The notes beneath the pieces were generated by a model. It made no database searches. It had not been told where the DNA came from and saw only the letters and a list, made by a program, of their open reading frames with translations. Source: a virus (lineage: Duplodnaviria > Heunggongvirae > Uroviricota > Caudoviricetes). From it: a stretch of 64,000 bases of DNA. This document shows positions 21,318-25,636 of this stretch, piece by piece. The position numbers and the translations under genes were made by a program. Location of the stretch: IMG/VR virus record IMGVR_UViG_2875703104_000004; one strand, given 5' to 3'. How positions within the stretch are numbered: position 1 is the first letter of the stretch; each line of letters begins with the position of its first letter.

Positions 21318-21396
21318 GCCGGTGTGTAGTGGCACACTGAATTTGGCCACCTGAACAGAGGTGATATGCTCACCTCAGAACAACACAGGTGCTCCA

Positions 21397-21657
21397 ATGA
21401 AAAAAAGAAATTTCAGCGCAGAGTTTAAACGCGAATCCGCTCAACTGGTTGTTGACCAGAACTACACGGTGGCAGATGCCGCCAAAGCTATGGATATCGG
21501 CCTTTCCACAATGACAAGATGGGTCAAACAACTGCGTGATGAGCGTCAGGGCAAAACACCAAAAGCCTCTCCGATAACACCAGAACAAATCGAAATACGT
21601 GAGCTGAGGAAAAAGCTACAACGCATTGAAATGGAGAATGAAATATTAAAAAANGCN
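21397..21657 (+). pseudogene. IS911 orfA, 5' part, interrupted by the IS30 left end
   Basis: Reading frame ends at the junction with TGTAGATTCAATTGG; Ns at 21654 and 21657. Confidence 0.7.
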
Positions 21658-21723
21658 ACTGTAGATTCAATTGGTCAACGCAACAGTTATGTGAAAACAT
21701 GGGGTTGCGGAGGTTTTTTGAAT

Positions 21724-23332
21724 GAGACGAACATTTACAGCAGAGGAAAAAGCCTCTGTTTTTGAACTATGGAAGAACGGAACAGGCTTCAGTGAAATAG
21801 CGAATATCCTGGGTTCAAAACCCGGAACGATCTTCACTATGTTAAGGGATACTGGCGGCATAAAACCCCATGAGCGTAAGCGGGCTGTAGCTCACCTGAC
21901 ACTGTCTGAGCGCGAGGAGATACGAGCTGGTTTGTCAGCCAAAATGAGCATTCGTGCGATAGCTACTGCGCTGAATCGCAGTCCTTCGACGATCTCACGT
22001 GAAGTTCAGCGTAATCGGGGCAGACGCTATTACAAAGCTGTTGATGCTAATAACCGAGCCAACAGAATGGCGAAAAGGCCAAAACCGTGCTTACTGGATC
22101 AAAATTTACCATTGCGAAAGCTTGTTCTGGAAAAGCTGGAGATGAAATGGTCTCCAGAGCAAATATCAGGATGGTTAAGGCGAACAAAACCACGTCAAAA
22201 AACGCTGCGAATATCACCTGAGACAATTTATAAAACGCTGTACTTTCGTAGCCGTGAAGCGCTACACCACCTGAATATACAGCATCTGCGACGGTCGCAT
22301 AGCCTTCGCCATGGCAGGCGTCATACCCGCAAAGGCGAAAGAGGTATGAACCGCCCCGGGAATCCTGGAGACTAAACTTCCTGAGAAAGAGGTAAACAGG
22401 ATGACTAAAAATACTCGTTTTTCCCCCGAAGTCCGTCAACGGGCAGTCCGTATGGTTCTGGAAAGTCAGAGCGAATATGACTCACAATGGGCGACAATTT
22501 GTTCCATTGCTCCAAAGATTGGCTGTACGCCGGAGACTCTGCGTGTCTGGGTTCGCCAGCATGAGCGGGATACCGGGGGCGGTGATGGAGGGCTCACCAC
22601 CGCTGAACGTCAGCGTCTGAAAGAGCTGGAACGTGAAAATCGTGAACTGCGCCGCAGTAACGATATCCTTCGCCAGGCTTCCGCTTATTTTGCGAAGGCG
22701 GAGTTCGACCGCCTCTGGAAAAAATNCGAATATCACCTGAGACAATTTATAAAACGCTGTACTTTCGTAGCCGTGAAGCGCTACACCACCTGAATATACA
22801 GCATCTGCGACGGTCGCATAGCCTTCGCCATGGCAGGCGTCATACCCGCAAAGGCGAAAGAGGTACGATTAACATAGTGAACGGAACACCAATTCACGAA
22901 CGTTCCCGAAATATCGATAACAGACGCTCTCTGGGACATTGGGAGGGCGATTTAGTCTCAGGTACAAAAAACTCTCATATAGCCACACTTGTAGACCGAA
23001 AATCACGTTATACGATCATCCTTAGACTCAGGGGCAAAGATTCTGTCTCAGTAAATCAGGCTCTTACCGACAAATTCCTGAGTTTACCGTCAGAACTCAG
23101 AAAATCACTGACATGGGACAGAGGAATGGAACTGGCCAGACATCTAGAATTTACTGTCAGCACCGGCGTTAAAGTTTACTTCTGCGATCCTCAGAGTCCT
23201 TGGCAGCGGGGAACAAATGAGAACACAAATGGGCTAATTCGGCAGTACTTTCCTAAAAAGACATGTCTTGCCCAATATACTCAACATGAACTAGATCTGG
23301 TTGCTGCTCAGCTAAACAACAGAACCGCGCTC
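21724..23332 (+). pseudogene. IS30 transposase gene, split by the IS629-like insertion/duplication and missing its last about 25 codons
   Basis: N-part 21724-22370 and C-part 22862-23332 (HWEGDL...GTNENTNGLIRQYFPK); the ORF ends in IS911-derived sequence. Confidence 0.7.
22376..22725 (+). mobile_element. IS629/IS1203-like (IS3 family) left end with orfA, cut off at an N join
   Basis: Terminal TGAACCGCCCCGGG and Orf[42 protein letters not shown]... (recall); sequence returns to IS30 after the N at 22726. Confidence 0.65.
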
Positions 23333-23926
23333 TTGATGTCAGACTCCCTGAACAGTTCTCGATAATCGGGAAACTCAGAGCGCATTATCCTGTGGTCACA
23401 CTCTGCCATGTGTTCGGGGTTCATCGCAGCAGCTACAGATACTGGAAAAACCGTCCTGAAAAACCAGACGGCAGACGGGCTGTATTACGCAGTCAGGTAC
23501 TTGAGTTGCATAACATCAGGTTCTGCCGGGGCAAGAAGCATCGCCACAATGGCAACCCTGAGAGGCTTCAGAATGGGGCGCTGGCTTGCCGGCAGGCTCA
23601 TGAAAGAACTGGGACTGGTCAGTTGCCAGCAGCCTGCGCACCGTTATAAACGAGGTGGTCGTGAACATGTCACTATCCCGAATCACCTTGGGCGGCAGTT
23701 CGCAGTGACAGAGCCAAATCAGGTATGGTGCGGCGACGTGACGTACATCTGGACGGGGAAACGTTGGGCATACCTTGCCGTTGTTCTCGACCTGTTTGCA
23801 AGGAAACCGGTAGGTTGGGCAATGTCGTTCTCTCCGGACAGCAGACTGACCATCAAAGCGCTGAAAATGGCCTAGGAAATCCGCAGTAAACCAGCCGGGG
23901 TAATGTTCCACAGCGATAGTAATAAT
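23333..23926 (+). pseudogene. IS911 orfB (DDE transposase), 5' part, interrupted by an IS110-family element
   Basis: ...[35 protein letters not shown]... then a break after MFHSD. Confidence 0.65.
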
Positions 23927-25291
23927 GCCGGTATCAGTTTTTATCATCACTCTGTTTGCTGTTTAACCAGACTGGTGTGATTACTGATGCAGTGAAGACC
24001 TTCCCGCATCCTGACTCACACAGCGATCGACCCTTTGTGTCCTGCCCTGGACCTGTCGGTTGCCGGAAGCGCCTTCATGCGAGGCGTCTCCTCACCGATG
24101 CGCGTGACTCAAGAAGGGCCTGACGGTTTGTCTCGTTACTGTCCTGTCCGGGTTATCTGTCTGGAGATTCAACTCTGTTTCCTCACAGGAGCTCTGTTAT
24201 GGCAGGTAAAGTTACGGAAACCGCTGTTGTGGGTGGCGTGGATACACATAAAGATCTGCACGTTGCCGCTGTCGTAGATCAGAACAATAAAGTTCTGGGG
24301 ACCCAGTTTTTCTCCACAATACGGCAAGGTTACCGGCAGATGCTGGCATGGATGACTTCGTTTGGGGCATTAAAGCGAATTAGTGTTGAGTGTACTGGCA
24401 CCTATGGATCAGGTCTGCTTCGCTATTTACAGAATGCCGGGTTAGACGTTCTTGAGGTGACTGCGCCAGATCGGATGGAGCGACGCAAACGGGGTAAAAG
24501 TGACACGATTGATGCTGAATGTGCCGCTCACGCCGCATTCTCCCGAATAAGAACCGTCACACCCAAAACGCGCAATGGCATGATTGAGTCTCTGCGGGTA
24601 TTAAAAACTTGCCGAAAAACAGCAATATCAGCCCGCAGAGTCGCTCTCCAGATTATCCATTCCAATATTATCTCTGCCCCGGATGAATTACGTGAACAGC
24701 TCAGAAATATGACGCGCATGCAGCTCATCAGGACTCTGGGATCCTGGCGGCCTGATGCCAGTGAATACCGCAATGTTACCAACGTTTATCGTATTTCATT
24801 AAAGTCCCTTGCCCGACGCTATCTCGAGTTACATGACGAAATCGCTGATTTGGATGTCATGATTGCGGCAATTGTCGATGAGCTGGCGCCTGAACTGATT
24901 AAACGTAATGCTATTGGATACGAAAGCGCTTCGCAGTTGCTGATCACGGCAGGAGACAATCCCCAACGATTAAGATCAGAATCAGGTTTTGCGGCACTGT
25001 GTGGTGTCAGCCCTGTTCCCGTATCTTCAGGAAAAACGAATCGTTATCGACTTAACCGGGGTGGAGATCGTGCTGCAAATAGTGCACTTCACATCATTGC
25101 CATCGGACGTTTGCGAACTGACGATAAAACGAAGGAATATGTCGCCAGACGAGTAGCGGAAGGGCATACAAAAATGGAAGCAATACGCTGCCTGAAGCGC
25201 TATATCTCACGCGAAGTTTATACATTACTGCGTAATCAAAACAGGCAGCTCAACAGCATCCCGATAACGGCTTGACTCTTAGAAGGGCGTC
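23927..25291 (+). mobile_element. IS110-family insertion sequence (about 1.37 kb) inside IS911 orfB
   Basis: Exactly fills the break in IS911 orfB (MFHSD | [10 protein letters not shown]); encodes an IS110-type transposase. Confidence 0.7.
24199..25275 (+). CDS. IS110-family transposase (358 aa)
   Basis: N-terminal VVGGVDTHKDLHVAAVVD, characteristic of IS110-family DEDD transposases. Confidence 0.8.
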   Translation: MAGKVTETAVVGGVDTHKDLHVAAVVDQNNKVLGTQFFSTIRQGYRQMLAWMTSFGALKRISVECTGTYGSGLLRYLQNAGLDVLEVTAPDRMERRKRGKSDTIDAECAAHAAFSRIRTVTPKTRNGMIESLRVLKTCRKTAISARRVALQIIHSNIISAPDELREQLRNMTRMQLIRTLGSWRPDASEYRNVTNVYRISLKSLARRYLELHDEIADLDVMIAAIVDELAPELIKRNAIGYESASQLLITAGDNPQRLRSESGFAALCGVSPVPVSSGKTNRYRLNRGGDRAANSALHIIAIGRLRTDDKTKEYVARRVAEGHTKMEAIRCLKRYISREVYTLLRNQNRQLNSIPITA

Positions 25292-25600
25292 CAGGGCAGC
25301 CACTATACAAGCAGGCAGTTCCGGCAGTTACTGTGGCGTTACCAGATCAAACAGAGTCTGAGTCGACGAGGAAATTGCTGGGATAACAGCCCGATGGAGC
25401 GCTTCTTCAGGAGTCTGAAAAACGAGTGGATACCGGTGACGGGTTACATGAACTTCAGCGATGCTGCCCATGAAATAACGGACTATATCGTTGGGTATTA
25501 CAACGCGCTCAGGCCGCACGAATATAACGGTGGGTTGCCACCAAATGAATCGGAAAACCGATACTGGAAAAACTCTAAAGCGGTGGCCAGTTTTTGTTGA
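25292..25600 (+). pseudogene. IS911 orfB, 3' part
   Basis: ...[46 protein letters not shown]...[12 protein letters not shown]. Confidence 0.7.
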
Positions 25601-25636
25601 CCACTACAAAACACTGCTGAGATATTCAATTTTCCA

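Follow-up and report, generated by a model that had tools for sequence, protein, structure and literature searches.

Insertion sequences in place of the early region of a decayed lambdoid prophage at icd: a nest of three elements with a probable assembly-error fourth layer

The stretch of DNA analysed here (the window) comprises 64,000 nucleotides from a virus of the Caudoviricetes, IMG/VR record IMGVR_UViG_2875703104_000004. Between the excisionase gene xis and the replication gene O of a lambdoid prophage, it carries a cluster of nested insertion sequences (IS). Two questions were raised by this locus, namely, which of the nested layers exist in a bacterial chromosome and what the cluster replaced. 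A first-pass annotation, made from the sequence alone, had described an IS911-like element, an IS30 copy with an IS629-like left end and an IS110-family element at 21325–25636, and had allowed that part of the nesting may be an assembly chimera. According to our results, the locus is very probably a decayed lambdoid prophage at icd (the e14 site), which holds a three-element nest with a fourth layer introduced by assembly error.

Layers of the nest and joins of the window

The profile matches (NCBIfam) gave the fragments in the order IS3, IS30, IS3, IS30, IS3, IS110 and IS3, and the next open reading frame (ORF) encoded the N-terminal domain of a phage replication protein O. The sequence, the ORFs and these matches placed all segments of the first-pass annotation about where it had put them; its start of the cluster at 21325 stood, and the end was moved from 25636 to 25608. 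The outermost element was an IS911-like copy of the IS3 family (21325–25608), which joined a 5′-truncated xis to O and was divided into three parts on the plus strand. The left part (21325–21659) contained the left inverted repeat TGTAGTGGCAC... and orfA from 21398 up to the A6G frameshift window, and it matched the IS3 profile. The middle part (23324–23917) started with the second AC copy of the IS30 target duplication (23324–23325), followed by the 5′ part of orfB. The right part (25292–25608) held the 3′ end of orfB and the right inverted repeat ...CCACTACA. The element read TGTAGTGGCACACTGAATTTGGCCACC... at its start at 21325 and ...GGTGGCCAGTTTTTGTTGACCACTACA at its end at 25608. An uninterrupted copy of this host element was found in E. 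coli SC477 (locus L004, 1719–2967), where it measured 1249 bp, had the programmed frameshift and was flanked by a 3-bp AAT duplication. The left part aligned with positions 1–335 of the intact copy (L004 2053 at its end, 1719 at its start) with 99.4% identity, the middle part corresponded to positions 334–932 (L004 2052–2650), and the right part was 100% identical to positions 933–1249 (L004 2651–2967).

The family of the host element was evaluated along its length. The TG...CA inverted repeats and the two overlapping frames with an A6G −1 frameshift, which characterize the IS3/IS911 group, were present. The AAAAAAG motif was located at 21648–21654; its G is present in the sibling and replaced by N in the window. 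The first 120 bp were 99% identical to copies annotated as IS911 family, including those of K-12-derived strains, whereas orfB was only 88.9% identical to a K-12-type copy with the same annotation. Hence, IS911-like is the right label; the near-identity along the whole element expected of an IS911 isoform was not found. The DDE transposase profile NF033516 matched three orfB fragments (profile positions 1–80, 147–267 and 317–368). Moreover, 5 bp were deleted from orfB at 23519, and TGG had changed to TAG at 23874. The host element is predicted to be dead several times over.

The distribution of the nest was explored in complete E. coli genomes with a 6-kb query around the locus, of which at least 80% had to be covered. 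The nest occurred at 99.9% identity in 64 of these genomes, including that of MCJCHV-1, which we take to be an ST1193 strain. In a sibling copy (locus L001), the genes were annotated in the order intE (frameshifted), excisionase, transposase fragment, complete IS30, IS3-family fragment, ISEc21-family IS110 transposase, IS3-family fragment, replication protein (frameshifted) and replication protein P; IS30 was intact, and there was no IS629 piece. A further possibility is that the whole nest is a scaffolding artefact, with the IS911-like element, IS30 and ISEc21 being separate complete copies elsewhere and xis not joined to O by them. The window is demonstrably a patchwork of contigs, which fits such an origin. 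However, identical junctions were found in the 64 complete genomes, which came from many laboratories, the left outer junction was present in 81 complete genomes and the right one in 80, with about 80 genomes sharing both, and an intermediate with both junctions and ISEc21 but no IS30 is known (FDAARGOS_536). An artefact of the whole nest is therefore scarcely credible.

Inside the nest, the window differed from L001 at two places only, and both were inside IS30: 519 bp were added and 76 bp were missing. IS30 in L001 was complete (7061–8281, 1221 bp): it had its terminal inverted repeats, encoded a transposase of 383 aa and was flanked by a 2-bp duplication (ggctAC/IS30/ACcgcg). In the window, the left end of IS30 (TGTAGATTCAATTGG...) started at 21660 directly after GGCTAC, inside the A6G frameshift window. 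Positions 1–687 of IS30 (21660–22346, plus strand; IS30 profile) matched L001 7061–7747 exactly. Positions 688–1145 followed at 22866–23323 on the same strand, and the last 76 bp (1146–1221), including the right inverted repeat, were missing, in agreement with the 3′ truncation noted from the window. The window copy was disrupted by these joins, and the 2-bp AC duplication still flanked it.

The additional 519 bp consisted of 380 bp of IS629-like sequence and 139 bp of repeated IS30. The first piece (22347–22726, plus strand) was the left end of an IS629/IS1203-like element, with the left inverted repeat, orfA and half of the frameshift pseudoknot; it ended in an N. The full element, which has both ends and measures about 1.3 kb, was not found there. 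The Rfam scan of 20000–27500 (E up to 0.1) returned only the ALIL frameshift pseudoknot, which was cut off at 22727 and scored 43.8 bits against a gathering threshold of 50. The second piece (22727–22865, plus strand) was another copy of IS30 positions 549–687, 100% identical to 22208–22346, and has the form of an unmerged contig overlap. The IS629-like left end is thus present in the given sequence, but it was absent from the prophage locus of the 64 complete genomes. In sibling genomes, the junction of IS30 position 687 with IS629 position 1 was found at another locus, beside sat, where a second IS30 is cut by a full-length IS3-family element. The 20 bp to the left of this sat-side IS30, which lies behind an IS3-family orfA, differed from the prophage locus at three positions. 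Of the Ns reported in the nest (21654, 21657 and 22726), all of which were present, the first two fell on such positions (21654, G versus A; 21657, T versus A), indicating that the consensus there was built from reads of both loci. The third stood exactly at the return join from IS629 position 380 to IS30 position 549. Among the matches listed from 5,426 complete genomes, neither this return join nor the four-element arrangement occurred in one aligned piece.

The same pattern was repeated elsewhere. Self-comparison of the window revealed at least nine other directly abutting duplications of 117–422 bp, several of them with an N or a run of 21 Ns at the join. They were located at 1410–1956, 2506–2784, 5121–5384, 7789–8115, 9563–9846, 13199–14040, 41360–41592, 58609–58909 and 62762–62994, with 7789–7951/7953–8115 and 13199–13620/13619–14040 as examples of the paired copies. 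Six lay in stretches matching a sibling at about 100%, and the duplicated sequence was single-copy in the sibling genome. Such systematic duplications indicate that the window was put together from a series of contigs without their overlaps being merged. The IS30 duplication belongs to this class of overlap, and the 380-bp tail attached to it strays into the other IS30 copy. A 195-bp stretch at 1586–1780, which lies between two copies of a duplicated segment and had no match to the sibling loci compared, resembles the IS629 piece in being a dangling tail where two contigs meet. Both the IS629-like piece and the additional 139 bp of IS30 are artefacts of assembly and not biology, and the suspicion of a partial chimera was justified. 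The true nest has three elements and 3841 bp, not four elements and 4284 bp.

The missing 76 bp of IS30 ended exactly at the boundary between IS30 and the IS911-like element, that is, at a repeat boundary. The junction left by this loss was not found in one aligned piece among the listed complete E. coli genomes, in which the siblings had the full IS30, and the exact-protein look-up of the chimeric IS30/IS911 ORF at 22877–23365, aimed at assemblies with the loss, returned nothing on record. The gap is probably a join made without overlap, and the 3′ truncation of IS30 would be an artefact as well.

Alternatively, a four-element nest may be real in the source strain, produced by recombination or gene conversion with the sat island and a separate deletion of the IS30 right end. 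The given sequence reads so, the source strain differs from its siblings outside the matching block, and the 76-bp loss carries no N. However, the join of IS629 position 380 to IS30 position 549 coincides with an N and offers no useful homology, the arrangement was not in one piece among the listed matches, the Ns at 21654 and 21657 show merged reads from two loci, and similar local duplications in the window are never seen in the sibling genome. We consider a real fourth layer improbable. Gene conversion between two IS30 copies was also tried as the source of the IS629 piece and was rejected, because the second join is without homology and carries an N.

Targets of ISEc21 and IS30

ISEc21 (23918–25291, plus strand; 1374 bp) consisted of a non-coding guide-RNA region (23918–24198) and a transposase gene (24199–25275). 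The gene was intact and encoded 358 aa, and it is annotated in L001 as "IS110-like element ISEc21 family transposase". The protein scored 191.4 bits against NF033542 (cut-off 140) over profile positions 3–341 of 343, as expected of the DEDD-type family. ISEc21 was positioned between adjacent host bases (L004 2650/2651), with neither a duplication nor a loss of host sequence, and it had no terminal inverted repeats, which is typical of IS110 elements. The reported clean split of orfB by an IS110-family element was thereby borne out. The insertion point was TTC CAC AGC GAT / CAG GGC AGC, which encodes FHSD/QGS, the motif of the second catalytic Asp of IS3-family transposases. In previous work, the codons around this Asp were identified as the natural target of ISEc21 (Siddiquee et al., 2024, Nat Commun 15:5235, PMC11187229). 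The element was reported to make no duplication and to occupy ISCfr6, ISEc92 and ISEc93, and a short reprogrammable RNA from the upstream non-coding region, which matches first the bottom strand and then the top strand, was required (PMC11187229).

Candidate guide segments for both target strands were found in the upstream non-coding region. The segment CACAGCGAT at 24019–24027 equalled the left flank (9-nt match), and 14 nt later CTGCCCTG at 24042–24049 was the reverse complement of the right flank CAGGGCAG (8-nt match). A second pair, AAGAAGGGCC at 24111–24120 and CGTTACTG at 24134–24141, matched the right and left ends of ISEc21 itself and shared a spacer motif with the target pair; this second pair may represent the donor loop. 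No duplicated core dinucleotide of the kind seen in IS621 fitted the ends of ISEc21, and no Rfam family for the guide RNA was returned by the scan of 20000–27500 (E up to 0.1). The fold of the 281-nt non-coding region had a z-score of −1.8, a value that is not informative alone.

Further copies were consistent with this pairing. In other strains, ISEc21 copies with identities of 97% and 91% occupied the same site in IS3-family orfB. A relative at 74% (locus L011, NZ_CP054407.1 1202952–1207344) was located in a different IS3-family host, with the flanks CACTCAGAC and CAGGGAAG, and its guides read CACTCTGAT and the complement of CAGGGAAA. The guides were altered together with the flanks, so that three positions changed jointly in guide and target. 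Adjacent to a group II intron in the same locus (1324–4393), a single IS3-family transposase gene holds two different IS110-family elements in succession, of which this relative is the first. The target site, the insertion without duplication and the guide RNA of ISEc21 were already described (PMC11187229), and the present result is therefore a confirmation and not a discovery. The locus nevertheless offers a clean natural example of IS110-family guide and target matching.

IS30 may have a preferred site as well. It was inserted after the same AC (window 21658–21660) in three IS911-group hosts. Besides the present element, these were a relative at about 89% identity next to fec (L003, about 3134) and an ISEc52-like copy on plasmid S56 (L005, about 826 and about 2049), where the orientation was opposite. 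Beside sat, IS30 was also present at the corresponding position in the orfA of a distant IS3-family element (L002, about 4452). These positions suggest that the AC dinucleotide just after the A6G window is a sequence-specific hot spot that IS30 uses in both orientations. With the IS30 hot spot and the ISEc21 target combined, IS911-group elements may be recurrent landing pads for other insertion sequences, a proposal that we hold only tentatively. Provided that the events are independent, this would amount to the systematic inactivation of one IS family by another at the two sites under the strongest constraint.

The interval between xis and O

The sequences on both sides of the nest were examined for what had been lost. 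The closest relative of int and xis in the phage collection was vB_EcoM-689R6, which is also integrated at icd and has an Xis of 81 aa (MLQMLTLEEWAAEKFRSNPPSVSTLRRYAKQNLFCPPAMKQGRLW...). Compared with its xis DNA, the window was 97% identical up to 21324 and unrelated beyond. The xis remnant (21185–21324, minus strand) covered about residues 37–81 of this 81-aa e14-type excisionase, and the first approximately 36 codons were lost. An ORF at the xis position had been recognized correctly near the left end of the nest. It was not a whole gene, however; its start, MKQGRLW, is an internal methionine, and the ORF corresponds to the C-terminal approximately 45 codons of Xis. On the other side, the lambda-type replication gene O (25609–26509, plus strand; TIGR01610, 84.8 bits) was frameshifted and lacked its first 5 nt. 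According to the alignment with the O gene of lambda-4C10, the lambda-type gene reads ...TTATGGCAAACACTGCTGAG, and the window reads ...CCACTACA followed directly by AAACACTGCTGAG, so that only ATGGC was missing from the 5′-truncated O of the first-pass annotation. The identical sibling sequence is annotated as "replication protein, frameshifted". Within O, an approximately 22-bp repeat (TTACCTGAATCAGGTAAGAAAA) was observed in four copies at 25955–26048, the position of lambda-type origin iterons.

In vB_EcoM-689R6, the interval from xis to O was about 5.3 kb and contained an HD hydrolase gene, yfdQ, yfdP, the cI repressor gene, a small ORF at the cro position and ymfL. In the window, this interval held IS DNA only, and a working immunity and early region with repressor, cro, promoters and N was not found. 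No repressor, cro, cII, N, exo or bet was annotated in the sibling block that is 99.95–100% identical to 16835–34266, as had been concluded from the window. The homology of xis and of O stopped exactly at the IS ends, which agrees with the earlier proposal that the nest replaces the early and immunity region. Target duplications were checked at each junction, as had been advised; the AC duplication of IS30 was found, and there was none for ISEc21 or for the IS911-like host, whose flanks are ..ccgGTG and AAAcac.. compared with AAT and AAT in L004. Because GTG and AAA are not a duplication, the IS marks the place of either an adjacent deletion or a recombination event that involved two IS copies. 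The absence of the 3-bp duplication that a simple insertion would leave is read as a product of deletion or recombination and not as evidence against membership of the IS3 family.

This pattern also bears on the possibility that nothing was deleted, in which case phages of this type would always have lacked an early region between xis and O and the IS would simply have inserted there. Lambdoid phages are mosaic, which leaves some room for such a history. However, xis is interrupted near codon 37, O is without its start codon and the IS lacks a target duplication. A working phage is not arranged with a replication module but no promoter, repressor or cro, and the closest relative in int and xis has such genes. 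An insertion without deletion is thus very hard to accept. The early and immunity region was lost in an IS-associated deletion, for which either of the two routes may account.

The integrase gene is affected as well. The intE-type pseudogene (20078–21204, minus strand) was divided in the ORF list into 20078–20569 and 20665–21204, and in the identical sibling sequence it is annotated as "intE site-specific integrase, frameshifted". With int frameshifted and xis truncated, the prophage would be unable to excise, and with O frameshifted and without a start codon, it would be unable to replicate. The prophage is accordingly predicted from its gene content to be unable to set up immunity, excise, replicate or enter lytic growth.

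The order of events can be partly read from FDAARGOS_536, in which the presence of ISEc21 without IS30 indicates that IS30 arrived last, in a sub-lineage. In the proposed history, the IS911-like element would have removed the stretch from inside xis to the fifth nucleotide of O, by an IS-mediated adjacent deletion or by recombination of two copies at those points. The promoters, the repressor, cro and cII genes, N and the recombination genes would have been taken with it. ISEc21, with the guide RNA encoded upstream of its transposase gene, would at some point have inserted at its normal target between the Asp and Gln codons of FHSD/QGS. Afterwards, IS30 would have entered the host frameshift window and duplicated AC. 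In the window, the IS629-like piece and the 139-bp duplicate arose from the joining of overlapping or chimeric contigs. The locus thus provides a relative order in one E. coli lineage, with the deletion and ISEc21 in place before IS30.

Some points weigh against this explanation. The join left by the 76-bp loss is marked by no N and no duplication, and the loss could therefore be a real deletion in the source strain. The artefact reading draws on the comparison with sibling genomes and on the internal pattern of the window. The prophage differs from the sibling genomes at the left edge of its block (16835) and in its late region, and hence the source is not simply one of those genomes. As for the deletion, nothing separates an adjacent deletion from recombination between two IS copies.

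Context of the prophage and comparison with known systems

The continuous block that matched known genomes was limited to 16835–34266 (99.95–100% identical to siblings). ST1193-type sibling genomes were considered as context for the whole window and were rejected, because they are not collinear outside this block. Window 1–14365 was the left arm of a different prophage, which is adjacent to potC in siblings, and it contained overlap artefacts. At the N at 14366, the sequence passed abruptly from the nin/Q region of this potC-adjacent prophage (9000–14365) to a piece resembling the sequence upstream of sitA (14367–15054); the two sides are about 75 kb apart in complete sibling genomes. Approximately 45 kb of core genes that lie between both prophages in complete genomes (potAB, pepT, phoPQ, purB, mnmA and the 5′ part of icd) were missing from the window. 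The stretch 34254–57432 was a lambdoid late region, from terminase to tail, with 75–97% identity to the potC-adjacent prophage of the sibling, and it may come from another locus. In the sibling WP3-W18-CRE-03 (L006), the holin gene essD directly adjoins gpJ where the window holds this late region. From 57432 to 64000, the window returned to the potC-adjacent prophage of the sibling at about 100%. The name "second prophage" given earlier rests on a patchwork of contigs, and the description as a 29-kb prophage remnant holds for the sibling genomes only. Elsewhere in the window, local duplications, isolated Ns and unusual junctions should not be taken for biological features.

Several neighbouring features were observed. 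The stretch 14367–16834 was similar to the right end of an icd prophage that carries sit genes (identities of 98% and 89% to the sibling). At 16835, it directly adjoined the 3′ end of icd carried by the phage; this junction has an attP-like or tandem-prophage form and is either real or a contig join. The stretch includes a 256-aa ORF at 15604–16374, which had no match to defence families. Between the attachment site and int, a two-gene pair was present at 17435–19809 (plus strand). The first gene encoded a 505-aa ATPase matching Septu PtuA (792 bits), and the second overlapped it and encoded a 285-aa HNH protein matching the candidate defence family PDC-M01B (381 bits). This pair is predicted to be a Septu-like anti-phage system carried as prophage cargo. 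Downstream of O, the replication gene P was intact (26506–27207, plus strand; "replication protein P" in the sibling annotation). It was directly followed by a gene for a 1183-aa inverse autotransporter of the intimin/invasin type (27457–31008, plus strand), next to which siblings have an alpha/beta hydrolase gene; the autotransporter gene is cargo in the early-right operon of a dead prophage. In the literature searched, nothing specific to this prophage in ST1193 was found.

Cryptic lambdoid prophages are known from E. coli K-12, including e14, Rac and DLP12. The present prophage shares with e14-type elements the integration at the 3′ end of icd with a phage-borne replacement, genes of the intE and xisE type, cargo between the attachment site and int, and decay by deletion and IS insertion. 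It differs from e14 in its lambda O/P-type replication module and in its cargo, namely, the Septu-like pair, the inverse autotransporter and, in siblings, sitABCD. The structure is ordinary genome decay of a kind already understood, and nothing in it is new. Its biological weight is small, since IS nests in defective prophages are routine and both the guide and target of ISEc21 and the insertion of IS30 into IS911 are known.

The inner layers can be compared with three described systems. ISEc21 here and the element studied by Siddiquee et al. (PMC11187229) have in common the 358-aa transposase, the upstream non-coding region and the lack of a target duplication. Moreover, the putative guides match first the bottom strand and then the top strand in both cases, and no material difference was observed. 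Bridge-RNA recombination by IS621, also of the IS110 family, is cited in PMC13626964. The second segment pair of ISEc21 would give it the same two-loop logic, whereas the ends of ISEc21 differ in having no duplicated core dinucleotide. In the CP4-6 region of E. coli K-12, IS911 is interrupted by IS30A (PMC9333248). Both loci have IS30 in an IS911-type element of a prophage remnant with a 2-bp duplication; the present nest differs in the host IS variant (about 89% in orfB), in the chromosomal locus and in the additional ISEc21.

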